Positions 13,746 through 57,224 of a stretch of DNA of 64,000 nucleotides are shown here, piece by piece. Positions within the stretch are counted from its first letter, which is position 1; every line of letters begins with the position of its first letter. The DNA comes from Candidatus Brocadiia bacterium (GTDB lineage Bacteria; Planctomycetota; Brocadiia; SM23-32): contig JBKHIT010000012.1 of assembly GCA_046538485.1 (NCBI GenBank), forward strand, positions 26,415 through 90,414, given 5' to 3'. Below the pieces are notes generated by a model, which worked only from the letters and a program-made list of their open reading frames with translations, was not told the origin of the DNA and did not search any database. The position numbers were made by a program, and so were the translations under genes.

Positions 13746-13904
13746 CTCCGCCTCGGCGATGCGGACCGACAGCTACCTGGTATTTTCCGGCGTTTGTCCG
13801 CCTCAAGTCCCCCTTCGTCCGCCTGAGCGGACTCAGCTGAACTCGAGTCTCGCGGTCCCGCGAGCGGACTGGACTTCAGCCGGAGACTGGAGTTCAGAAC
13901 GCGG
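13746..13904. repeat. 159-bp composite REP-like repeat, copy 1
   Basis: Near-identical to 21970-22128; partial inverted copy 26221-26345; related segment 48340-48448. Confidence 0.9.
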
Positions 13905-14110
13905 TCGACAAACGGGGTTGTAAGCTTACAGAATCACTGACACTAAACGAGAAGTTCATATTACGACAACCTCTAAAGACTTTTCCGACGGAAACTTAAG
14001 GAATTTGCGTTTGATGCAATGGGAACAGCCCTCGGAATTTTCGCGAAATTCCTGACTACCAGAACTCGCAGGGAGGCACAGCGCATATTCCTTTCCCCGA
14101 CCAGAGACGC

Positions 14111-21929: not shown

Positions 21930-21969
21930 CCCGGCAAACTCACCAAAACAGCAGAACGACCTACGGCAG

Positions 21970-22128
21970 CTCCGCCTCGGCGATCCGGACCTACAGCTAC
22001 CTGGCATTTTCCGGCATTTGTCCGCCTCAAGTCCCCCTTCGTCCGCCTGAGCGGACTCAGCTGAACTCGAGTCTCGCAGTGCCACGAGCGGACTGGACTT
22101 CAGCCGGAGACTGGAGTTCAGAACGCGG
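21970..22128. repeat. 159-bp composite REP-like repeat, copy 2
   Basis: Near-identical to 13746-13904. Confidence 0.9.
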
Positions 22129-22286
22129 TACATAAATCGACGGGTCTCGGCGCAAAACAGCAGAACGACCGAGCCCCTGAAAGGGCGCACTGCGAATCTG
22201 ACGACGGTTTCGCAGCTTGCAATGAGACGTAACGTTGAATGGCTGAGCACAACACACGCTAAACCGGTGCCGAGATCGCGGTAGTC

Positions 22287-25795: not shown

Positions 25796-26345
25796 CCGGG
25801 GTTGCGGGAAATGTCTCGTGCTGCAAGAGGCAGCAGTTTTGTGGTGGGCCTTCAGCCCACTTTTTTCTCAATGCACACCTGTACCCCAGGGCTCCGACGA
25901 CTTTCAGCCGTCTGCACCCCGGGCTATTATATGCTGCCCTTTCAGGGCAATGAACGGCAGGGCGGGCTCGGCGATAACCCCTTGCATCTGGATGGCATCC
26001 CGGATAGGTGGAGCCCCGGTGGGTTCGGGAGATCTGTCGACTGATAGTGCGCGTTCTGAACTCCCGCCTGCTTATGTGTCAAATCACGGAACGCGACAGA
26101 AAACAACGAGTCCCTTTGGTCCCTTTGGTCTCTTCCGTCCCTTCTCTCCGCAACCCATCGCCGGGGGGAGCCGCCGTTGGTCGTTCTGGTGTTTTGCCGT
26201 GAGACCCCTCGGTTTATGAGCCGCGTTCTGAACTCCAGCCTCCGGCTGAAGTCCAGTCCGCTCGCAGGGATTGAGACTCGAGTTCAGCGGAGCGCGCCAG
26301 CGGCGGGCGAAACTGGACTTGAGGCGGGCAAATGCCGGCAAATGC
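25796..26345. repeat. Mosaic of REP-like modules (inverted relative to most other copies)
   Basis: Reverse complement matches modules at 38320-38493, 48457-48670, 32172-32297 and 13746-13904. Confidence 0.85.
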
Positions 26346-26669
26346 AAACACGTCTGGAAGTTCCAACAAACTCGACCGCCATGCGAGCGGCGACGCGATA
26401 GAAAAAGTTCTGGCCTCTGCCGGCCCCCTGCCAGCGGCGCGGCGATTAGCTCACTACGGGCGTTCAACTCACCAGGTGCTCTCCATCGGCCCTGCGCCGA
26501 TGGGGCCACGCAGTAACAGAGTTGTGCCGGTGATACATAACGGTGTTTCCAACTCCCCTTTTAGCACCGACGGGGCTTGCATGAAGCACCTTTCACGGCA
26601 GGAAACGGGAACCCGGAGTAGCGGGCGGCGGCCGCTTCCACAGGGTGGAGTCTCCTCCGCACGAGGCTC

Positions 26670-27413
26670 CTATGAGGCCGTTTGTCAAGACCAAAATCCA
26701 TTCCATCTTGTGTTTGTCCTTTCTCGTTTACTATCTGAATTGTGATTACTGTTCTTATCAGCCGGGAGTCTCTGTGTTATCCTCCCGGACGATATCGCTC
26801 ACCCCGCGTGCGCATGCACCAGAGATTCACGCAAAGCTTTCGGGCCATCCCTACGATCACTTTTTGCTTGCAGCCAGTATTACCCACCAGCCTTGCGAAC
26901 GTTTTGCTTGCAGCGTTCTCTAAACCTACCCACCGCCAGGCCGCATCCACAAGCATCGAGCGCAAGCTTTCCCTGCCGGCTTTGATAAGACCCTCGTCTG
27001 TGTGCCTTTCCCCGCTGCTGGCAAAGCGCGGCACAAGACCGACCATAGTCGATACTTGCCTGTGCACCTCGAAACGCTCCGGCTGATACAGTTCGAATCC
27101 GCACGGTCCCGCTTCGTAGACGGCTTTTTCGGCAGCCGCACCCAGCGGCTTGAGGCTGGCAACCAGAGCCCGCGGCGAACTTGGACTCAGCCACTCGGCT
27201 ACCTTTCGCCTGTCTCTCCACACAACGACATTGATATTTTTCTTGTGCACGTCCAATCCGACGTATACCCGATCGCCTAAACCGATTACGATACGCTTGC
27301 CATTTCTGCGCAACACATTAGACTCAACCATTGGGCCGTTTCTCCTTGTGAGAAAAATGACTCTCAACATCACCACAAATCTTACAGGAGGGACGGCCTT
27401 CATATTAACTATG
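26670..27413 (-). mobile_element. Internally deleted IS110-family (IS1111-like) element
   Basis: Subterminal IRs ATGAAGGCCGT / ACGGCCTCAT, CATAG core at both ends, TTGACA inside the right end, transposase remnant. Confidence 0.8.
26777..27331 (-). pseudogene. IS110 transposase with in-frame internal deletion
   Basis: VYVGLDVHKK...YEAGPCGFELY (DEDD N-terminus) fused directly to PERF...GLVP..SSG...KAG...ARKL (C-terminal domain); only about 184 aa. Confidence 0.88.
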
Positions 27414-27521
27414 GAGCCCAAGGTGGCTTGTGCTAGAGCCATTTGGGTTGATTGGAACTATTAGCTGTGCAGCAGTTGGGAAGAGGGCAAAAAACTATTT
27501 CCCCAAAAACGTGCTCTCAGG

Positions 27522-27740
27522 GGCGCCCCCCCGTGGGGGATTCGATGGGACAGAGGTGCCTGCCATTTTAAATATCACTTGCACTGGCATACCCCTTTCA
27601 GGTAATCCACCGCGACTCGCGCCCCCCGTGGGGGATTCAATTTCCGGAAATATCAGTTTCACCGGCAGAGCTTACTAAGGACCCTGCAGCACCCCCGATG
27701 TAGTCTACCGCGAGTCGCGGTCGCCGCACTCGAAAGGCTC
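27522..27740. repeat. Repeat module shared with 38622-38765
   Basis: GGGGGATTCGATGGG...TTTTAAATATCA...TGGCATACCCC...CGCGACTCGCG and CGCACTCGAAAGG in both places. Confidence 0.8.
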
Positions 27741-28383
27741 AACGGCAAACCCGAAAAAGGCACAGTGCTTTGTGTGTTTCCCCACGCAACGAACCGCTGA
27801 AGCGGTCCACTACGAGGACGTTTCAGTGATTTGTACGTTCCCGGAGTTAACGCAAGCCCCGGAACCAGCGTCAGGTTCGTAGTGAGTCTCTTCAGGGGCT
27901 ATTGCGCACTCCGAAAGAGTGCCTCAGAGTGTAGCCCCGTGCTAAGGCGCCGTCAGCCGCCGGAGTTCGGGGTTCTGGGGCGAAAATAGAACGCGTCCCG
28001 AAACGGTGGCACTGACAAATTAAAAGCGGCGCTATCGCGCGCGCACTCGAAAGCCAGCGCGACGCGCTGGCAGGGTACCACCATACATACGTTGATTTTT
28101 GTTGCGTACTGCGGCACGAGACACTTCCCGCAACCCAGGGATGCCGGGAGATCTGTGGGCTGATGAGCCGCGTTCTGAATCCAGCATTCTGTTCCGGAGC
28201 TGATTCGCCTGTAAAGTGTTTTCTCCGTTTTCCGAAGGACAATTAAGGAATTTGCGCCCCGTTCAAGGGCAGAATCAGCCGGGATTTTCGTGGAATGCCC
28301 GGTTCTCGGGCAGAGAAAAGACCTACAGCGCAAATTCCTTGCTACATGCGTTTTCATGTCGTCCGCAGAATACCTCACTATTC

Positions 28384-31998: not shown

Positions 31999-32171
31999 AA
32001 CAAATAATCCTTTGAAGGTAAGTTCAGTGTGTTCCGGTCCGGTCCAAAAGAGGCCCGTCAGGGCCGATGCAGACTTAGCCCCGGCTGCGAACGCGCGTAG
32101 CGTTAGAGCCCGGGCAAAACGGGAGTACCAGGATGTGAATGGATCGCGTGAACTCCAGTCTACAGGTTGCA

Positions 32172-32367
32172 CGGAGAAGGGACACAAGAAGCCAAGAGAC
32201 GAAAGGGACTCCGTATTTCCTGTCGCGTTCCCTCACCGGACACATGAGCGGACTGGACTTCAGCCCCGCTCTGCGGGGTCTGGGGTTCAGAACGCGGCTC
32301 ATCGACAATACTGGTCTCGCAGCAAAACGACGAACGACAGGTCCGCCTCGGCGATGCGGACCTACAG
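32172..32367. repeat. REP-like module cluster
   Basis: GAGCGGACTGGACTTCAG...GTTCAGAACGCGG module plus GTAG-type REP (minus strand GTAG-GTCCGC-ATCGCCGAG-GCGGAC). Confidence 0.85.
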
Positions 32368-32444
32368 TTCTCTGACAATCCTCTCCATCTTATACGGTAT
32401 TCGGCTGCCAAAGACCTCCCATCTTCGGTCCCCTTCACTCACCT

Positions 32445-34061
32445 CTACTCCGGCAGATTGACAGGCGCCACTTCCACCTGCGCAAGATCGCCGACGGGAC
32501 GGACGGATTCTGTTTTCTCGCTCACAAGGACAAACGATCCTCCCATTTCGACATCCATTGTAATCTTTTTGTACTCCGGCACCGTAACCTCGACCCCCTT
32601 CTTGTCACCGAGCGGTGCGTGAGCATAAATCAGCCACTCGCGACTCGGTTTCTGCCCGATCCGGCGGGCGAGTGCCCAGATCGGCATGGGTGTGGTGAGC
32701 TTCCATGGACGTTCGGGGTCGAGACTTGTCTCGAGCCGGAACCAGCGATTCTCCTCTTCATATTTTTCAAGCAAATCGGTGTTGAACGGGTGATGCTGTT
32801 CCGTGTTTGGAACCAGATGCCCATGTCGCCAGAACCGCTTGAGAACCGGATCCACGTGGACCAGGTCGACGGCCCGGATGATCTCTTTCATATTGTGCCA
32901 GTAGCTTTCGTGCGGGCTGGTGGAACTCTCCCATTCCCGGGCCGCACGCGGCAGCAACAACCACATTCCGTACTGGACCCATCCGCGATAGCGCGCGGGA
33001 CTCGTCGCATCGTAACCGTTTTTCTTGTACTGAGCGGCCTTGTCCTGCCCCCCATCCCAGTAAATCAGTTCAAACCAGAAGTCCGGGTTGACCGATAAAG
33101 CTTCCTTTTTCATGAATACATTATTCATAAACGACATCTGGCAACTCCAGAGGTTGAACATATTCTTTTTCGGTTCCCAATCGTTATCGTAGTATGACCC
33201 CATTGCGCCTTCCCAGGCGTACCAACCCCAGGCAACGCGATCGGGCGAGGCGTTTGACCACCGCAGCCAGCCTCCGTCGCCGATGTCCGGCCGCCCGTAA
33301 TGATCGGGGCCCGCTCCGCCGTAGGGCAGGATGATGCTGTTGGCTTTCCAGGCTTTCTTTTTGAGTCCCGCCCGCATGCCTCGGAACATCGCTCGATAAC
33401 GCCGAATCCAGCCGTTGGCAACGACCCGGCGTTTGAACATATCGCTTCGGCCTTTTCCGTAGAGATCGAGATATCGCCGGGATTTTTCGGCCTGATGCCA
33501 TCGCAAATCAGGCGGTTCGTTATTGCTGACAAACAGAACCAGCGGTGGACGGGGATAATCCTCCTGGAGCTTGCTGATGCCGGGCGAGGTAACGAGCATG
33601 ACTCCGAGATCTTCCCATGGTTGGACCGGACCGAACGGGCTGATCTTGCGTTTTGTCTGGCCGTCGGCGGTCAGCATGAGCGGACTTTCTTCCGGGGAGA
33701 GTTTCTTGAACTTTTCGCGTCGCCAGAACCGGGAGACCCATTGATTGCCGTGGATGATGGTCAGCGGCAACCGCCATTTTTTGACCTGTTCAAGCCCTTT
33801 GAATTCGCGCGCACCAGCTCGGGGCCATTCAATGAAAGGAAGAATATGGTGTCCCCGCCGGATCAACCCCACCTGAAACGCGAGCGAAAAATGATTGGCA
33901 TGCCAGTGTCCGGCCAGAGGCAAAGGGCGTCCTTCCGGATCGAAATTGGGCCGGAGGGATTCCGTCCGGATTTCCCCCGTCGTCTCAGGATGGGCAGAAA
34001 GCACAGGGAAACACGCAAAGGCGACAGCACCGATTACGGCGATAAAAAACACTTTTTCCAT
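32445..34061 (-). CDS. Secreted uncharacterised protein, paralog A (putative glycoside hydrolase)
   Basis: Signal peptide; shares GRPLPLAxHW, NNExP, FWFE, GWVQYGMWLL with 41084-42841. Confidence 0.8.
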   Translation of the reverse strand: MEKVFFIAVIGAVAFACFPVLSAHPETTGEIRTESLRPNFDPEGRPLPLAGHWHANHFSLAFQVGLIRRGHHILPFIEWPRAGAREFKGLEQVKKWRLPLTIIHGNQWVSRFWRREKFKKLSPEESPLMLTADGQTKRKISPFGPVQPWEDLGVMLVTSPGISKLQEDYPRPPLVLFVSNNEPPDLRWHQAEKSRRYLDLYGKGRSDMFKRRVVANGWIRRYRAMFRGMRAGLKKKAWKANSIILPYGGAGPDHYGRPDIGDGGWLRWSNASPDRVAWGWYAWEGAMGSYYDNDWEPKKNMFNLWSCQMSFMNNVFMKKEALSVNPDFWFELIYWDGGQDKAAQYKKNGYDATSPARYRGWVQYGMWLLLPRAAREWESSTSPHESYWHNMKEIIRAVDLVHVDPVLKRFWRHGHLVPNTEQHHPFNTDLLEKYEEENRWFRLETSLDPERPWKLTTPMPIWALARRIGQKPSREWLIYAHAPLGDKKGVEVTVPEYKKITMDVEMGGSFVLVSEKTESVRPVGDLAQVEVAPVNLPE

Positions 34062-34105
34062 TTTCCGTATTCCCGTCAATGGGGCAGAGTTACAAATGAG
34101 ATAAC

Positions 34106-34951
34106 TTACCGGGGCACAAGGTTTCTCATAGCAAAAGTTGTGGGCGAACCCCAGGGATGATAGTAATCAGGCATGTATTCCTTAGCATCCGCATATCCAG
34201 CTCCGCCATCTGGATACAGCAAATTGGCACCGTGGTTGTGATGTACACCCGGAGCCCGTAAACCGTGAAGATTATATCCTCTTTCGAGTGTCACAGATCC
34301 AGCATCAACGTGGCTGCAGTGATCATCAACGAAAAGCGAACCATCAGCATTGCCGTTCGTGTGATGATTGCCATGCCATCCATCGTATTCGAAACCGTCA
34401 ATCAGCAGAAACCCGTCCGGATGGAAGTCCCCGAGCCGGTACCTTCCGTCTCCTGCCGAGGATTGGGTTACCGCATTAAGCGCGTTGATATAGTAATCCA
34501 TCCTCTTGATCAGGGCCCCCTCTGCGTCGTATTTGTAACATGCGCCGCCGTCGAGATGGCAGTTAACCTTAAACGTCGTGCTGGGACAGTCAAAGAGTGG
34601 TGCGTGGTTGGCTATCTGCCACGGACACCGGTTAATCCAGGCTCTCATTGATTGAGATGGATCGACCTTATCTGGAACGATATAGGGGGCGTAAAGCGTA
34701 TACCACTGCCAGGAACAATAATCACGGGAACTGTTATATATTCGTTGAGCGGGCAACCATTCGTTGCTGTCGTTGCCATACATCTGGTATGCGAGAGAGA
34801 TTTGTTTCAAATTGTTTAAACACACCGTGCGCCTTGCTGCTTCCCGCGCCCGCTCCAGCGCCGGCATGAGCATAGCGGCCAGAATGGCGATGATGGCTAT
34901 GACAACCAGCAACTCGATCAAAGTAAACCCTCTGCGCTGTGAAGCATCCAT
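34106..34951 (-). CDS. Prepilin-type N-terminal cleavage/methylation protein (DUF1559, H-X9-DG type)
   Basis: [47 protein letters not shown]. Confidence 0.92.
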
Positions 34952-35009
34952 AACGTCCCTCCCAATTCATAAAACTTGAAGGTCAATAATAACTATAACT
35001 TTCAAAAAA

Positions 35010-35118
35010 CTATGGCGCGCGGCGGGGATGAAACAAATCTTTTTGAGCCTGCTCTTCCTTGGCCGTCGCTCCCCACGATTGTGGCCACCAAACGGCTTCT
35101 TTGGCGAAAAAGCGAGAT
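35010..35118 (-). pseudogene. Orphan C-terminal tail of a DUF1559-type gene
   Basis: FFAKEAVWWPQSWGATAKEEQAQKDLFHPRRAP* resembles the preceding tail YMKKELVYWTTDVTSDEVDAQKRLFSPDLAP*. Confidence 0.6.
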
Positions 35119-35766
35119 TTACGGAGCCAGATCCGGGCTGAAAAGCCTCTTTTGAGCATCGACCTCATCCGAAGTAACGTCCGTCGTCCAGTAAACAAGC
35201 TCCTTTTTCATATATATCACGTGCCCATCGATAAAAGCTATGTTTCCGCCCTTCCGGTTCTTGTGACGTCGCGGACCTGGTTTGTTATAGCTTGTGGGTG
35301 CCTTCCGACCAAAACGGTGCAACGCCTGGCCAGTGTCCTCGGTGCGACCATTATCACTGATAAGATGCGTGCCGCTTCCCACGGGCACTTCATTGATCGT
35401 ATTAAAGACTCGCAGCGGCTTGTAATACTGGGAATAATATGTATCTTCCCAGCTCCCGGTACCCTTCTGGCCGATTGCAGGATTTAGGCCGTAAAGGGCA
35501 TTGTGACTGCTCACACCATGGCAACTCCCTTTGACTAATTTGTCCACCGAAGGACATAAAAAAGGATCGGGGTGGTCGTGAAACATCAGAGTACAGACAC
35601 ACCAGCCCGAGGAATTGGGCTCCTTACCGTTGATATATGGCCACAGTCTCAACATCCACCCCGAACATTGACTCCAATTCCCTGCACTAAGTTCCTGGGG
35701 GCGTGTAAACCATCCTTCATAATCGAGAGTATATTGAATCTCACCCAATGCAAGTTGCCTGATCAA
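35119..35766 (-). pseudogene. Headless DUF1559-type gene body (no prepilin leader)
   Basis: Begins IRQLALGEIQYTLDYEGWF (the NLRQL..A..Y..D segment); has RHKNRKGGNIAFIDGHV. Confidence 0.8.
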
Positions 35767-35995
35767 GGGTCATAGTCTCCGCCGGGACTCAAGCCTTCTT
35801 CCCATTCGTAGTCCAGGAGAGGATCGAGGCAGAGCCGTTCCACTCGCCCGTCAGTGAACCACAATCCTACTCTCCCGCCGGGGTGGCGCCAGATATCAGT
35901 TCCTCCGTTCGTAAACCAAGCATCGCAGCCAGAATCGAGATAATCGCAATGACTACCAACAACTCAATGAGTGTGAAAGCCTTTTTCAGTTTCAT
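35763..35995 (-). pseudogene. Prepilin leader fused out of frame to a DUF1559 C-terminal fragment
   Basis: [26 protein letters not shown] (35995-35918), stop at 35867; other frame WFTNGGTDIWRHPGGRVGLWFTDGRVE...DYDP* (35918-35763). Confidence 0.85.
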
Positions 35996-36030
35996 TCTCT
36001 TGTTCAAACACAAATATCCCTCATATTTTT

Positions 36031-36094
36031 AGTATACTCCTACGCAAAAAAAAAGCAATATTCTTTTGCGTCAGGTCCTTTTCGATTTGCGACA
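36031..36094 (-). promoter_or_regulatory. Putative AraC/XylR-activated promoter 2
   Basis: TGTCGCAAATCG-N9-TGACGCAAA-N6-TTGCTT-N16-TATACT. Confidence 0.8.
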
Positions 36095-36378
36095 AGTCTC
36101 TCGTTGCCGATACACGGGTAGATCGGAGTTCAGGCGGAGGCTGGAGTTCAGAACGTGGACAATACTTCCAGAATATTGCAGCCTTCGGTTTTACGACTTG
36201 CAGCCGGGCCTACAAGAGACGCGCCTTCATAGGAGTGCGGTGTGTTAAAACGGGCCTCGGGCGCGTTTTACTCACCGCTGTGTCGTTCCCGAATATGCTC
36301 GATCCCATGTGATTTTCCCCCGACAACGACACAGAGGAACGACAAAACGGCGATACGGCAACGGCACAGACAAACGGC

Positions 36379-36547
36379 ACAGCGGCGAAAAATCGCCGCA
36401 CTCCAGAGCCGGCTCCGCCGGCGGGGTTCATGCATGAAACGGTACTGTTAAGATTGTCCGGCACGCAACATGTTCCATTCCGGAACGAACGACAACGACT
36501 CCGGGCCGTCAGGCCCGGTCCACAGGCTGGAGAGCCTGTGCCACATG
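36379..36547. repeat. Composite repeat shared with 38764-38931
   Basis: CGCACTCCA...GCCGGCGGGGTTCA...GATTGTCCGGCACGCAACAT...CCACAGGCTGGAGAGCCTGTG. Confidence 0.85.
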
Positions 36548-36594
36548 TGTTTGTCGCACACTCAGAAAACATCCCCAAAATCCCGCTTCGTAGC

Positions 36595-36731
36595 TCATTG
36601 CGAGCCCATCGCAAGATGGGCGAAGCAATTTCGTCTTTTTGTTGCCCCAACAGCGAGATTGCCGCGGCGCCCCGCTGAGCGGAACGCCTCGCAATGACAT
36701 TTGTGAACTTGGACGGCTGATTTAACGCAGG
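36595..36731. repeat. CGTC-type REPIN-like long hairpin, copy 1
   Basis: TCATTGCGAG...GAAGCAAT...GAGATTGC...CTCGCAATGAC; second copy 52553-52690. Confidence 0.85.
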
Positions 36732-36962
36732 TTAAACGCATACCCGGCCAAACCGACAGAGGCCGGGCGCGAGGTCACGCTGCGACGGCCAGCCCACTCA
36801 ATCTCTGCCTCCTGTCACGCAAGGTGACAGCGGGGCTTCGGGTGCTGAATAAGGAGGCGTAGAATCGGCCGTTTCGGCCAGGGTGGGATGAAACTTCTGC
36901 ACACCATAATTTTTCAGCCCCGTGTCCCGTCTCGCACCTGCACCCAGGGGTTGCGGGAACCT

Positions 36963-38033
36963 TCACCCGAAAAGCCGATGTGCTTCTTCCAGCAAATCCA
37001 CCACGGGCAGATCGTAAGGACATTTTTCTTCGCATTCCCCGCAACGCTCGCATTCGTCGGCTTTGATCTCGACCATGCTGTACCGCCCACGGGCCCACTC
37101 TTCCAGACCCATTTCCCGCCCGTAGAACAGATGCCGAAGAATTATGGGGATTAGAATACCGTTCGGGCAGGGCTGGCAGTAGCCGCAACCCCGGCACATC
37201 TCGCGTCCCAATCCTCTGACTGCATCCTGCAGGGCCGCCACTTCCTCTCTCGTGTACCGGTGTTCCGGGCTGGCGGCGCGGATATCTTCACGCAGTTCTT
37301 CAACCGCCTTCATCCCGACCATTGCACAATCGGCGTAAGGATTCTCAAGCACGAAACGAATGGCCCCCGCCGGTCCAATGGGTCGTTCCGGCAAACCCTG
37401 GCCTTCCAACTTCAATTTATCTCCCACCTCCGCCAGAACGCCACCGCCCAGAGGTTTCATCACAAGGGTTCCAAGATCGTGCTCTTTCGCCATCGGCATA
37501 ACTTCTTCATCCATCAACTCGTCATTCAGAATATTATAAGCGACCATAATAACGTCGAAACGTCCCGAAGAAATCGCTTTTTTGAACGTGTCGTGGTAGC
37601 GGTGACAACTGATCGCCGGGTGCCCGATCAGTCCTTCCTCCCGCGCCTGTTCCAACGCTTCCAGAGCTCCGCCGCTCGACGTTGCTTTTTCGTATACCTC
37701 AGGAAGTCGCAGGTTATGCGTCAGGTATATGTCGATATAGTCGGTCCGCAGGTTGCGCAAAGACGTCTCGATGTCGCGTCGCATACCATCGGCATCCCGC
37801 GCCTGGCTTTTTGTCGAAAGAATGACTTCACCGCGCCGCCCCTCGAGGGCGCGCCCGATTTTCTCCTCGCTATCGCCGTAGGCCCGAGCTGTATCGATAA
37901 TGTTGATCCCGCTATCGATGGCCTCATTAACAAGACGTGTAACGTTTTTTTGATCGACGCCGGGAAATTTTATCCCGCCCAGTCCGATCTCCGACACCCA
38001 CAGTTCCGTCCGGCCAAGTCTTCTCGTATGCAT
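36963..38033 (-). CDS. Aldo/keto reductase with C-terminal 4Fe-4S domain
   Basis: IDTARAYGDSEEKIG, LRTDYID, MKPLGGG, CRGCGYCQPCP, CERCGECEEKCP. Confidence 0.93.
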   Translation of the reverse strand: MHTRRLGRTELWVSEIGLGGIKFPGVDQKNVTRLVNEAIDSGINIIDTARAYGDSEEKIGRALEGRRGEVILSTKSQARDADGMRRDIETSLRNLRTDYIDIYLTHNLRLPEVYEKATSSGGALEALEQAREEGLIGHPAISCHRYHDTFKKAISSGRFDVIMVAYNILNDELMDEEVMPMAKEHDLGTLVMKPLGGGVLAEVGDKLKLEGQGLPERPIGPAGAIRFVLENPYADCAMVGMKAVEELREDIRAASPEHRYTREEVAALQDAVRGLGREMCRGCGYCQPCPNGILIPIILRHLFYGREMGLEEWARGRYSMVEIKADECERCGECEEKCPYDLPVVDLLEEAHRLFG

Positions 38034-38131: not shown

Positions 38132-38995
38132 GAGCGGACTGGACTTCAGCCGGAGGCTGGAGTTCAGAACGCGGTGCAGAAGCCCGCAGGCCTCGCTGCA
38201 CAAAGACCAACAACCAACGGCACCTCCGCCTCGGCGATGCGGATCTACAGCTCTCGAGCGTTTTCCCGGACAGCAAAAGTTCACCGCCCCGGAGAATTTC
38301 CCAGAACCCTCCTGGTCTCCCCGTATCCGGGATGCCACGCAGATGTAGGGCGTGATCGCCGAGCGCGCCCTGCCGTTCACTACCCTGAAAGGGCAGCATA
38401 TAATAGCCCGGGGTACAGAGGGCTGAAGGCCCCTCGGAGCCCTGGGGTAGAGATATGCATGAAATGATAGTGGGCTGAAGGTCCACCACAAAACGACGAA
38501 ACGGACAGAGGACAGAGCGGCAGAGGACAGAGGTCAGTAATGGCGCACAGGCAAACGGCAGAACGGCGTTACAGCAAGGGCAAACAGCGAACGAGTAACC
38601 AGGAACGACTGACGGCACAGCGGCGCCTCCCTGGGGGATTCGATGGGGCAGACTTTCCTGCCGTTTTAAATATCATTGGCAGTGGCATACCCCATTCCAG
38701 ATAGTCCACGCGACTCGCGGTCACCGCACTCGAAAGGCGCAACGTCAAACGGCGAAAACGGCAAAGCGGTGGCGAGCCACCGCACTCCATAGCCGGCTTT
38801 GCCGGCGGGGTTCAGGCACGAACCGATATTGATACGATTGTCCGGCACGCAACATATTCTGTTCCGCAACAAACCACAACGAATCCGGGTCTTACGACCC
38901 GGTCCACAGGCTGGAGAGCCTGTGCTCCATGCTTCTATCAGGGATTTGGGCTTTGCCGCTTTTCGTGTGCTTTGTGTGTTTCCCGACGCAAGGTC
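38132..38995. repeat. About 860-bp intergenic mosaic of REP-like modules
   Basis: Consecutive modules, each found elsewhere in the window (13.8, 22.0, 25.8, 27.5, 32.3, 36.4, 48.3 kb). Confidence 0.85.
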
Positions 38996-41083: not shown

Positions 41084-42841
41084 TCAATCATTTATCCGCG
41101 AGACTTTGCCGCTTTTTTCCTCCACGACGAAGAACGCACCGGCTCGCGGGACATCGACCTTTATCTGCCCGAAATCCGGCACTTTGATTCCTACATCATC
41201 CCGATCATCCAACGGTGAGTGCGCGTAAACCAGCCACCGGCGTTGTTCTTTCTCACCCAGCACCAACGCGAGGCTGAAAACCGGGACGTTCGTTTTCAAT
41301 TTCCATGGACGCTCGGGATCAAGATCCGTATCGAGCAGGAACCAGCGGTGGATATCTTTGTATGCCTCGGGAATAGCAGACTGGTAGGGATGACGCCGTT
41401 CGCGGTTATGAACCAGCTCCCCGTGCCGCCAGAACTCCTTCAGTGTCTCATTCTCATAAACGCGATCAACGGCTTTAACGGTCTGCATCCAGTATGTTTT
41501 CACGGGTCTCAAAGGAGTTGTGTGCCCACGGAATTCCCGCACGACCCGGGGACGCAAGAGCCACATGCCGTACTGCACCCAACCCAGCACCCGCTCGGGC
41601 GGATACGTCTGACCGTCCATCATATACTGGATTGTTTTGGACTTCCGGATGCACTTTTTGTCCATCTGTTTTTTCTCTTCGGCGGTCAGGGGTTCACTGG
41701 ATTCGGCAACCAGATTCTCCGGTTCCTCCACACCCAGGCCTTTCATCCACATCTTCACGTTATTGCCGTCCCAGGTGGACATCTCGAACCAGAAATTGGG
41801 ATTGGACTTCCACGCCCGATCGAGCATGAAAACCCAGTTCATCGCCTGCACCTGTGTCGAAAATACCCAGTGGTCACGATTGTCGTTCCAGTTGTGCGTG
41901 TAGTAAGAAGGGCTCCCGCCGTCCCAGACGAACCAATCCCACGCGACACGCTCGCTCGTAATCGATGAATAGACCTGCCAGCCACCCCATCGGCCAAAAT
42001 GGGACGGTCCGAAAGCCCCGTAGCCGATTATACGGACGTTCTCCCGCCAGTTCTTATTCACCAGTGCGTTGCGCATGGCGTCGAGCAACACCTCGTAACG
42101 TTCCATCCAGCCGTCTCCCACCACTTTCCGCTTGAACTCGTCGGAACGTCCTTCGCCGTATTTTTCAAGGTAGCGGGCGGACTGTTTTTCCAGCGGACCG
42201 TGTTTCTTCCAGCGCAGATGCGGGGCTTCGTTGTTACCGTACCACAAGATCAGCGGTGTATCGGGATAAAATTCCTGGGCCCATTTCATGGCTGCATTAT
42301 CAACGTAAACCTCGGCTGGATCCTTCCACGGTTCGATCGGCCCGAATGGACTGAGTTGAGGTTTGCGTTTGCCGTCGGGAGTAATCACACCGGTCCACTG
42401 TTGCTCCGGGCCTTCCCGGTATTTCTTTTTCACCAGTATCGATTCCCACTGTGTGCCGCGGAACGAAAGCGGGAGTTTGAGCTTTCGGCAGAGGCCAAAC
42501 AGTGGCACCCGATATTCCTGAAAACGCCGGCTCTGCGGATCACGCCGCAACCAGGCCGACCACGGAAGTATATGGTGGCCTTCCTGGATGAGCTCGATCT
42601 GATGTTCGGGCTCGAAACTGCCTTTTATGGCCCCAACGTTCCAGTGGCTGGCAAGCGGTAAAGGACGTCCTTTTGGCCCATTGGGGGGCAGAAGCGCTTC
42701 CCGTCGGATCACCGGGGCCGTCCGCCGCGCCGCATCCGTTGGCTCCAGAATGGCTATCCTGGTGTCCTTCTCCTGTCCCATCGCGTTAAAACCCCACAAT
42801 CCCACGAGCACCATCGCAACAAACATTTTTCGCATCCACAT
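41084..42841 (-). CDS. Secreted uncharacterised protein, paralog B (putative glycoside hydrolase)
   Basis: Signal peptide; motif blocks shared with 32445-34061. Confidence 0.8.
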   Translation of the reverse strand: MWMRKMFVAMVLVGLWGFNAMGQEKDTRIAILEPTDAARRTAPVIRREALLPPNGPKGRPLPLASHWNVGAIKGSFEPEHQIELIQEGHHILPWSAWLRRDPQSRRFQEYRVPLFGLCRKLKLPLSFRGTQWESILVKKKYREGPEQQWTGVITPDGKRKPQLSPFGPIEPWKDPAEVYVDNAAMKWAQEFYPDTPLILWYGNNEAPHLRWKKHGPLEKQSARYLEKYGEGRSDEFKRKVVGDGWMERYEVLLDAMRNALVNKNWRENVRIIGYGAFGPSHFGRWGGWQVYSSITSERVAWDWFVWDGGSPSYYTHNWNDNRDHWVFSTQVQAMNWVFMLDRAWKSNPNFWFEMSTWDGNNVKMWMKGLGVEEPENLVAESSEPLTAEEKKQMDKKCIRKSKTIQYMMDGQTYPPERVLGWVQYGMWLLRPRVVREFRGHTTPLRPVKTYWMQTVKAVDRVYENETLKEFWRHGELVHNRERRHPYQSAIPEAYKDIHRWFLLDTDLDPERPWKLKTNVPVFSLALVLGEKEQRRWLVYAHSPLDDRDDVGIKVPDFGQIKVDVPRAGAFFVVEEKSGKVSRIND

Positions 42842-42958
42842 GTAATTTCTCCCGTCTCCTTGAAAAATATATCCGAGCCAAACAATACCCTGAACCGTAT
42901 AGAGAAACACCGACCACCTCCCAATCCCCCCGAACATACGGCCGCAATGCATCTATCC

Positions 42959-48139: not shown

Positions 48140-48261
48140 AATCATTCCCGGGGATGGAATACGGGGACGCAAAAGCTCCAGAACGCGCTGGAGCCGACCG
48201 GCTTTCAAACACGGTGCTGCTACCGGCGGCCGCAGATCCCGTGCCGTGGTGGCCGAGGCAT

Positions 48262-48670
48262 GAGCGGACTGGACTTCAGAACCGCTCGGCGGGGCTGGAG
48301 TTCAGAACGCGGATGAATTTATTGGCCGTTAAATGCGCGCCGGCATTTCCCGGCGGTTGCCCGCCTCAAGTCCAGTTTCGCCCGCCGATGGCGGGCTCAG
48401 CTGAACTCGAGTCTCAATCCCCGCGAGCGGGCTGGAGTTCAAAAAGCGGTGGCCCTCACGTATCCGGGACGCCGCGCACCTGTAGGGCGTGATCGCCGAG
48501 CGCGCCCTGCCGTTCACTGCCCGGAAATGGCAGCATATAAGAGCCCAGGGTGCAGACGGCTGAAAGTCGTCGGAGCCCTGGGGTAACAGTGGAGGAAAAA
48601 GGGTAGTGGGCTGAAGGCCCACCACAAAACTGTTGCGTCTTGCGGCACGAGACATTTCCCGCAAACCAGG
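48262..48670. repeat. Intergenic mosaic of REP-like modules
   Basis: CTGGACTTCAG module, GTAGGGCGTGATCGCCGAGCGCGCCC REP, GTAGTGGGCTGAAGGCCCAC REP. Confidence 0.85.
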
Positions 48671-52382: not shown

Positions 52383-52552
52383 AGAAAATCTCCGTTCTTC
52401 CTTACCTGTTCCCCCGGCCTCCGAAGGCTTTCAGCCCTCTGCAGGCCGGGCTTTTATCAGCTAATGCTCCTTCTGGCAAATGCCGCAGCTTGCCGTGCTC
52501 TGAACCCGAAGCACGGCTCCACCGACGCAAGGTCAGAAATACCGCTTCCTGG

Positions 52553-52690
52553 GTCATTGCGAGCCCATCGCAAGGTGGGCGAAGCAATCTCGTCGTTTTG
52601 TTGGCCCAACAGCGAGATTGCCGCGGCGCTCCGTTGTGCGGAACGCCTCGCAATGACATTTGAAAACCTGGACGGCTGATGTAACGCAGG
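52553..52690. repeat. CGTC-type REPIN-like long hairpin, copy 2
   Basis: GTCATTGCGAG...CTCGCAATGAC; matches 36595-36731. Confidence 0.85.
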
Positions 52691-52707
52691 CTATGCGCGT
52701 ACCAAGG

Positions 52708-55061: not shown

Positions 55062-55076
55062 CTTCTCCATTAAATT

Positions 55077-55127
55077 GAGCAGACTGGACTTCAGACCCAC
55101 CCGGTGGGGCTGGAGTTCAGAATGCGG
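55077..55127. repeat. Stand-alone CTGGACTTCAG hairpin module
   Basis: CTGGACTTCAG-ACCCACCCGGTGGGG-CTGGAGTTCAGAATGCGG. Confidence 0.85.
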
Positions 55128-56913: not shown

Positions 56914-57224
56914 ACAAACACAGTCGTTAAACGGTAGTCAAATGTATTGGGGCATAGCTTAAACAACAAACGACATAGCGGCGACAAATCGCCGCACTCC
57001 AGAGATGCCGCTCCGCGCCATCGGGCTTCAAACGTGCCGGGGTAGCTGCGGAACCGTTCGGCGGCGGATAGCACCTTATTTTCATGCGCGCCACGTGGAT
57101 GTGCAGGGCTTGACATATCGAGCCAGGCCTTGAGAAATGCTTATTTGGGAAACCAGTCCCCTATTTATACCAGCTTCAGATAAGCTGTCCATCCCATTTC
57201 GCGCCGATTCTTTTTCGATATGCG

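Follow-up and report, generated by a model that had tools for sequence, protein, structure and literature searches.

Fragments of prepilin/DUF1559 genes stacked upstream of an intact copy in a Candidatus Brocadiia bacterium: probable remnants of decayed paralogs

Silent, truncated gene copies are known from several bacterial settings. Orphaned 3′ regions stand behind a constant 5′ part in Rhs loci and in Vibrio type VI secretion system (T6SS) arrays, and some of them are reported to be frameshifted and to have been annotated formerly as relics (PMC2935791, PMC5361080). The pilS copies of Neisseria are reported to be promoterless and to lack the constant 5′ coding region of pilE (PMC6796969), and gene remnants also occur in large paralog families. 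DUF1559 is reported to be the largest paralog group in Planctopirus limnophila, with 68 genes of which two are essential (PMC10632474); it has been described as restricted to the PVC (Planctomycetes-Verrucomicrobia-Chlamydiae) bacteria (PMC4807772), and one plasmid copy has been reported (PMC5352709). A literature search found four papers that mention DUF1559, none of which deals with fragments or cassettes of the family. Here, we analyze a stack of prepilin/DUF1559 gene fragments in Candidatus Brocadiia bacterium (assembly GCA_046538485.1, contig JBKHIT010000012.1, forward-strand positions 26,415 to 90,414). This stretch of 64,000 nucleotides is called the window below, and all coordinates are counted from its first letter. 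The fragments are piled over approximately 1.9 kb upstream of an intact gene, at 34.1–36.0 kb. With a probability of about 0.7, we read the stack as non-functional remnants left by illegitimate deletions and insertions or deletions (indels) among diverged paralogs. On this reading it reflects ordinary birth-and-death turnover: the feature is real but ordinary, one more case of a hyper-paralogous family that has left gene remnants behind.

Five pieces on one strand

Three-frame translation of 34090–36060 recovers five pieces, all on the minus strand and at the positions given in an earlier note on this DNA, together with every string quoted there. They are listed in transcription order with the basis for each; P0002 and P0003 are database relatives of the third piece, and HMM stands for hidden Markov model.

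35918..36013, minus strand: (i), 5′ end of a prepilin-like gene (translation; N_methyl, TIGR02532 and family HMM matches)
35995-35918, minus strand: leader proper of (i), 26 codons ending ..ILAAML (three-frame translation)
~35921-35763, minus strand: (ii), ..AWFTNGGTDIWRHPGGRVGLWFTDGRVERL..GGDYDP and a stop codon, ~52 codons (motif level)
35766-35119, minus strand: (iii), headless body of a DUF1559 subfamily, 215 open codons, beginning ..LIRQLALGEIQY (P0002 alignment, family HMM)
35117-35010, minus strand: (iv), 3′-terminal remnant ..FFAKEAVWWPQSWGATAKEEQAQKDLFHPRRAP, 33 homologous codons and a stop codon (P0002 and P0003 tails)
34951-34106, minus strand: (v), intact 281-aa prepilin-type/DUF1559 gene (N_methyl and DUF1559 matches)

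A family HMM was built from eight members outside the window and searched against the 1991 stop-to-stop fragments of the window. It matched (v) at E 1.1e-42, (iii) at E 1.6e-31 and (i) at E 5.2e-13, with all other fragments at E ≥2. Statistical support was obtained for four of the five pieces, (i), (iii), (iv) and (v), with (ii) placed by its motif alone. The prepilin N-terminal methylation motif is present in (i) and (v) and in none of (ii), (iii) and (iv), and (i) and (v) are the sole two prepilin leaders across the window.

The open reading frame (ORF) of (i) runs from 36013 to 35867; its start may be the TTG at 36013 or the ATG at 35995. Past the leader the frame enters foreign sequence and stops at 35867, 16 codons after AAML. 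The leader itself, which the earlier note had called perfect, matches Pfam N_methyl (PF07963) at E 1.7e-9 and NCBIfam TIGR02532 at E 4.6e-9. The gene (v) is intact, as that note had it: it matches N_methyl at E 2.3e-9 and TIGR02532 at E 7.6e-9, and reaches 43.7 bits against DUF1559 (PF07596, SBP_bac_10; gathering score 23.3), where the match covers only the N-terminal part of the model. Residues 9–69 of (v) can be aligned with alpha1 in the solved structures of type IV pilins and of GspG. The leaders of (i) and (v) form a 59-nt repeat of 76% identity with a longest exact run of 8 nt, the sole extended DNA repeat between the two genes. The earlier note had placed the stack behind a promoter ('promoter 2'), which we could not recover: a sigma-70 consensus scan of 32000–37000 gave 0 sites against 3.5 expected in shuffles, a result of little weight in a phylum without model organisms. 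From 36013 to 34106 the minus strand showed no terminator-like hairpin.

Two side observations belong to these genes. Just 5′ of the ATG of (i), at 36000–36012, the minus strand reads ..CLNK.., like the CLNN motif of the family, and this 13-nt stretch is 92% identical (12/13 nt) to the CLNN-coding 34812–34824 of (v). It could be another tiny remnant, with a match no better than many chance ones. Separately, GC content in (v) and the fragments is 0.50–0.52, and at third codon positions (GC3) 0.53–0.55, below 12 of 14 compared neighbors (GC3 0.61–0.67), which fits family-specific composition or recent acquisition.

The largest fragment, (iii), is a headless body with no stop in its 215 codons, as the earlier note had claimed. 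An exhaustive search of 1.84 billion representative proteins returned seven relatives at E≤0.001. Residues 2–215 of (iii) align at 49% identity with residues 64–271 of P0002 (271 aa), the closest full-length relative. Compared with P0002, (iii) is without ~62 N-terminal residues, that is, the leader and most of the alpha1 helix, and its residue 2 matches residue 48 of (v) in the alignment. P0002 itself matches N_methyl, and DUF1559 at the gathering score (23.7 vs 23.3). Its AlphaFold model (13 sequences) has a mean pLDDT (predicted local distance difference test) of 70.2 and is confident only in the N-terminal helix, residues 12–77; (iii) misses residues 12–63 of that helix, 52 of its 66 residues, and it is the counterpart of this stretch in (v) that matches alpha1 of the solved pilins and GspG. 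Foldseek of the model against the PDB gave no match at E≤0.001, and the likeness to pilins is confined to the helix. Leaving aside a 131-aa gene call of the window itself, (iii) is nearest to P0003, a truncated chimera, at 58% and then to P0002, with no relative above 58% identity among the 1.84 billion representatives. A word-based homolog search returned only that gene call, tblastn against 72,556 plasmids gave no match, and (iii) has no Pfam or NCBIfam match of its own, including TIGR04294 at E≤10. The best local alignment between (iii) and the intact (v) has 26% protein identity over 101 columns (E 0.008).

P0003 (172 aa), from another genome, joins in frame ~40 residues of a DJ-1/PfpI N-terminus (E 4.5e-4) to a 5′-truncated (iii)-like body; since it too is truncated, breakage of this subfamily is not unique to the window. 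The window's own gene call (P0001, 131 aa, 35122–35514, minus strand) is public, starts at an internal GTG of (iii) and is probably spurious, an artefact of annotating a gene that has lost its head.

Despite its missing head, (iii) is well preserved. All six invariant columns of the family alignment (A1) are retained, its stop looks native, and its in-frame coding score is 0.082 vs 0.095 for (v). Over 125 shared columns its identity to the outgroups P0004/P0005 is 40%/38%, compared with 34%/33% for the intact P0002. As (iii) is no farther from the outgroups than P0002 is, there is no accelerated divergence; its truncation is recent, or its sequence is still constrained.

Piece (iv) is the tail of a second member of the subfamily of (iii). 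Over 33 residues it has 64% identity with the very ends of both P0002 (E 2e-14) and P0003 (E 1e-14), and all three stop at the same last residue; it has no DUF1559 match in Pfam. It lies in another frame than (iii). At the DNA level the tails of (iii) and (iv) have no significant likeness, with 24 of 500 shuffles reaching the observed score.

For (ii) the picture is less uniform. The earlier note had called it an out-of-frame C-terminus of the family, and both the string and the frame shift are there, while the family identity gained no statistical support. The piece sits in the frame one base upstream of that of (i) and carries RHPGG-x7-DGRVE, with an H-to-DG spacing of H-x10-DG, not H-x9-DG. 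It has no Pfam or NCBIfam match, including TIGR04294 (the HX9DG model, 22 positions) at E≤10; that model scored the positive control L038 at 41.3 bits, and P0002 at 18.0 bits vs a cutoff of 19. The family HMM missed (ii) at E≤10, Smith-Waterman comparison with family members gave z≤2.1 in 13 of 13 cases, and none of eight candidates for longer homologous proteins scored in a word-based search. On the other side, hhalign placed (ii) at the expected HX9DG position with E 0.05, and the Atlas gives a lead, no more than that, through the nearest cluster with a Pfam label, which is DUF1559 (0.85). When the window is translated in six frames, HPGG..DG.V is seen a single time, in (ii), and coding potential over the region is best in the frame of (ii) (0.104 vs −0.058 and −0.393). 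At motif level, (ii) probably derives from the 3′ end of a further member of the family.

The pieces abut, as the earlier note had observed: spacers inside the stack are 0–8 nt, and 58 nt separate (iv) from (v). The first junction (J1, ~35918) coincides exactly with the end of the conserved leader DNA. At the second (J2, ~35766) the closing TGA of (ii) overlaps the first codons of (iii), which open with TTGATC, and the stop of (ii) may thus be supplied by (iii) itself. At the third (J3, ~35115), no more than 8 nt lie between the native stop of (iii) and the start of (iv). The last residue of leader (i) is number 26, and the first of (iii) corresponds to residue 47–48 of (v), such that only the ~20-codon alpha1-C segment (..PALExAREAAxxxxCxNN..) is absent between them, with ~155 nt of (ii) in its place. 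The junctions after AAML and before RQL, which the earlier note had set at conserved family motifs, do flank this segment in alignment A1. No flanking direct repeat of at least 7 nt was found at J1/J2 or at the (iii) tail/J3, the sequence up to 40 nt from J1, J2 and J3 has no k-mer of at least 13 nt with a second copy in the window, and neither the leader nor any other block is directly repeated inside the stack.

Probable decay of paralogs and the rival explanations

Decay or collapse of extra paralogs, one of the two readings offered in the earlier note, fits these data and explains them best. Paralogs that stood in a short tandem row and had diverged beforehand would have been hit by a few illegitimate, non-homologous deletions or indels. 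Because only ~20 codons are missing between them, (i) and (iii) may be one gene. The most economical course would then be that ~60 nt of this gene, coding for alpha1-C, were swapped for the ~155 nt of paralog-derived filler that is (ii), and (iv) would be the stump of the next gene, left by a separate deletion. We infer the order and number of these events, and the unity of (i) and (iii), from the arrangement of the pieces. At least two source genes are involved besides (v), those of (iii) and (iv), with (ii) a third if it is real; of the "at least three" extra paralogs in the earlier note, two are therefore established and three is the upper reading, which needs (ii). No piece upstream of (v) can be the source of a pilin-like protein that is exported and competent for assembly, given that the only leader there lacks a body and the only body lacks a leader and most of the helix. 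An active role of the stack in varying (v) is denied by the lack both of machinery, in the 35 long ORFs scanned, and of DNA homology that could move information into (v).

Several observations weigh against decay. All three remnants, (ii), (iii) and (iv), are 5′-truncated and co-oriented with their 3′ ends kept, and two junctions lie 0–8 nt past a stop codon. Such ordered truncation is not expected from random deletions, and a directional mechanism explains it better. Compared with gene remnants in other large paralog families, the stack, which is co-oriented, 5′-truncated and spacerless with its largest piece undegraded, is tidier than expected from random decay, and continued selection would account just as well for how well (iii) is preserved. 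Comparison with other loci adds to this side. A genome collection was scanned with the 544-aa protein encoded downstream of (v) (alignment A2), which gave 52 loci, mostly from Planctomycetota metagenome-assembled genomes (MAGs), with a best identity of 64%; the window's own genome is absent from them. No orthologous locus was recovered among the 52, and none was syntenic with (v), (iii), the 1267-aa gene farther downstream or the aldo/keto reductase gene upstream. Neither (ii), (iii), (iv) nor these latter two neighbors were matched in any of the 52 loci; (v) was matched in five, over its N-terminal third or so only (residues 1–124 at most), and many loci are closer to a second paralog of the 544-aa gene, at 41084–42952, than to that gene itself. 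Used as a background of related MAGs (793,274 bases, 20,640 stop-to-stop fragments), the loci contain no fragmentary family match, and all five of their DUF1559 genes are full length. Of eight ORFs with a leader motif, 196–319 aa long, none is truncated soon after the leader, one of them (in L050) carrying a chance motif. The earlier note had suggested looking for similar fragment stacks at other DUF1559 loci, and the background holds none; such piles are hence not commonplace, as far as this small sample goes. Two tandem genes at L008 lie ~96–111 nt apart vs 0–8 nt between pieces of the stack.

The ordered truncation is what sequential displacement would leave. In that scenario new members repeatedly recombined in at the leader, through homologous pairing there and an illegitimate join at the other end, each time pushing the old 3′ part downstream, until the head gene broke; the stack would be a record of gene replacement, with its pieces dead today. 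A single 5′ leader followed only by 5′-truncated, 3′-complete, co-oriented and spacerless pieces is the pattern expected, the leader is the only DNA-level block conserved between the paralogs, and both the pattern and the proposed mechanism have been described for Vibrio T6SS arrays (PMC5361080) and Rhs (PMC2935791). However, the piece next to the leader is a short out-of-frame scrap and not an intact newest gene, which requires an extra event, and the displaced pieces carry no partial conserved core, unlike the Rhs fragments as reported (PMC2935791). The leader is moreover a poor anchor within this genome, as its 76% identity across the 59 nt and its longest exact run of 8 nt indicate, and homology-facilitated illegitimate recombination is reportedly rare (PMC5361080). 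We regard displacement as an unlikely, minority alternative. A shade less likely still is the broader claim that DUF1559 genes turn over through one-sided homologous recombination at the prepilin leader, with this stack as the record. If true, this would be a hitherto undescribed diversification route of the largest planctomycete gene family, and preserved leaderless bodies such as (iii) could form a lasting reserve from which genes are re-activated in the same way.

Other explanations fare worse. The proteins of the window are recorded on one contig of 90,414 nt, whose genome is absent from the 185,579 species representatives; the source is probably a metagenome assembly. The family is moreover highly paralogous, so the contig might join different paralogs or strains into a stack that exists in no cell. 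Such an artefact would require three separate misjoins within 900 nt. No k-mer of at least 13 nt near J1–J3 is repeated elsewhere in the window, and after a misjoin at the leader one would expect the conserved segment that comes next instead of a C-terminus; we consider an artefact improbable. The other reading of the earlier note, a pilS-like silent reservoir whose leaderless pieces recombine into an expressed DUF1559 gene, (v) or another, is not supported by the comparison with (v). It can point to the undegraded state of (iii) and to tandem, promoterless, 5′-truncated copies without the constant N-terminal region beside a full gene, as reported for pilS (PMC6796969). However, the longest k-mer common to (v) and the stack is 10 nt, (iii) and (v) share only the 26% protein identity over 101 columns given above, and the pieces come from different subfamilies. 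There are no shared 3′ repeats, and no G-quadruplex (G4) motif (G3+N1-7 x4) was found on either strand of 33000–37500. With the nearest relatives of (iii) at 58% (P0003) and 49% (P0002), no plausible recipient is known, and neither a recombinase nor a reverse transcriptase was found in the 35 long ORFs scanned across the window. A reservoir is thus highly improbable. Barely credible is a recoded single gene, in which two −1 ribosomal frameshifts would join (i), (ii) and (iii) into a product of ~290 aa. Both junctions do take a −1 frame step, and at the second, C CCU UGA, a P-site slip at the stop is conceivable. Yet neither junction has an X XXY YYZ heptamer, and two shifts in the same direction are a 1-in-4 chance given two frame changes. 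The product would also lack the alpha1-C segment kept in all seven relatives that reach that region, and would hold two HX9DG-like regions.

If the stack is simply the product of decay, 35010–36013 should be annotated as pseudogene remnants, and the locus illustrates the turnover of DUF1559 genes through illegitimate recombination. If the ordered, 5′-truncated arrangement were general across PVC genomes, it would indicate a directional replacement mechanism.

Surroundings of the stack

Downstream of (v), on the same strand, lie the conserved hypothetical gene of 544 aa (34079–32445) and then the 1267-aa gene; a HEAT_2 repeat match is present only in the 1267-aa protein, not in the 544-aa protein. 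Upstream of the stack, 940 nt of repeat-rich non-coding DNA precede the gene for the aldo/keto reductase, which has an Fe-S domain. The rest of the window is rich in sulfatases, GFO/IDH/MocA and FAD oxidoreductases, heparinase-like and GH20-like proteins and AraC regulators. Scans of the window for Rfam families and for tRNAs gave nothing. Among the 35 scanned ORFs there is also no integrase, and no recombinase or reverse transcriptase lies within 5 kb of the stack. The sole mobile-element protein among them is a partial IS110 transposase ~7 kb away.

That transposase is a 221-aa ORF (26777–27442, minus strand) with only a C-terminal Transposase_20 (IS110 family) domain, probably a partial insertion sequence. 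It is flanked by modules of dispersed intergenic repeat families (25836–26263 and 27518–27789). Across the window the modules measure 34 to ~200 nt, with 71–98% identity:

36125-36158, 36372-36547, 36578-36744; 38132-38931; 13862-13905; 21955-22135, both orientations: dispersed repeat modules
25836-26263, 27518-27789, 32244-32372, 48260-48630, 52395-52703, 55076-55127, 56966-57016, both orientations: dispersed repeat modules

These repeats border both sides of the aldo/keto reductase gene that adjoins the stack. They are absent from the stack itself and from the 52 fetched loci and have no Rfam match; they may be REP-like (repetitive extragenic palindromic) or MITE-like (miniature inverted-repeat transposable element) elements, or shared regulatory modules.

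The 544-aa gene (32445–34079, minus strand) and the gene at 41084–42952 (minus strand) are paralogs in a large conserved family without a Pfam domain. With the 544-aa gene we found 651 homologs at E≤1e-5 and ~160 invariant columns among the closest eight. Family members come from MAGs of Planctomycetota, Verrucomicrobiota, Hydrogenedentota and others, and some are fusions with cadherin-like or immunoglobulin-like domains. From the neighboring genes, the family probably represents an exported enzyme of glycan metabolism.

Comparison with known systems

Some known systems resemble the locus in a single trait. Two homologous C-terminal tails side by side, those of (iii) and (iv), recall a diversity-generating retroelement, which we rejected because the DNA similarity of the tails is not significant and the scanned ORFs of the window contain no reverse transcriptase. 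An integron cassette array was rejected as well, since spacers of 0–8 nt leave no room for attC and the same ORFs include no integrase, as was an invertible element, there being no inverted repeats of note.

With Neisseria pilE/pilS the locus shares a type IV pilin-like N-terminus and tandem promoterless copies without the constant 5′ coding region, and (ii), (iii) and (iv) each lack a leader and abut the preceding piece. The pilS copies are reported to be without promoter, ribosome-binding site and constant 5′ coding region (PMC6796969), and of the published pilE/pilS traits checked here, this promoterless and 5′-truncated state is the only one that the locus shows. In contrast to pilS, no conserved DNA blocks (cys1/cys2-like, or a 3′ Sma/Cla-like repeat) are common to the silent and the expressed copies, and the fragments are not variants of one gene; they belong to different subfamilies, with identities from 26% (iii to v) to 64% (iv to its relatives).

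The Rhs dissociated C-terminal tips and the Vibrio T6SS effector–immunity arrays, as reported, likewise consist of a constant 5′ part followed by orphaned, silent, 5′-truncated 3′ regions (PMC2935791, PMC5361080), and a string of co-oriented, 5′-truncated, 3′-complete orphan regions behind a constant 5′ part is what we find here. The differences lie in the details: the constant part is only a 26-codon leader, and the fragments contain no repeated core, none of them starting with a near-identical partial core; (iii) starts ~20 codons past the end of the leader. The head gene is broken and (i) stops after 16 codons, instead of an intact head gene with the newest 3′ part in frame, and neither immunity genes nor toxin domains are involved.

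As in gene remnants of large paralog families, there is nothing nearby to mobilize or recombine the pieces, and the locus consists of truncated, out-of-frame, unexpressed-looking pieces of several paralogs beside a live copy.

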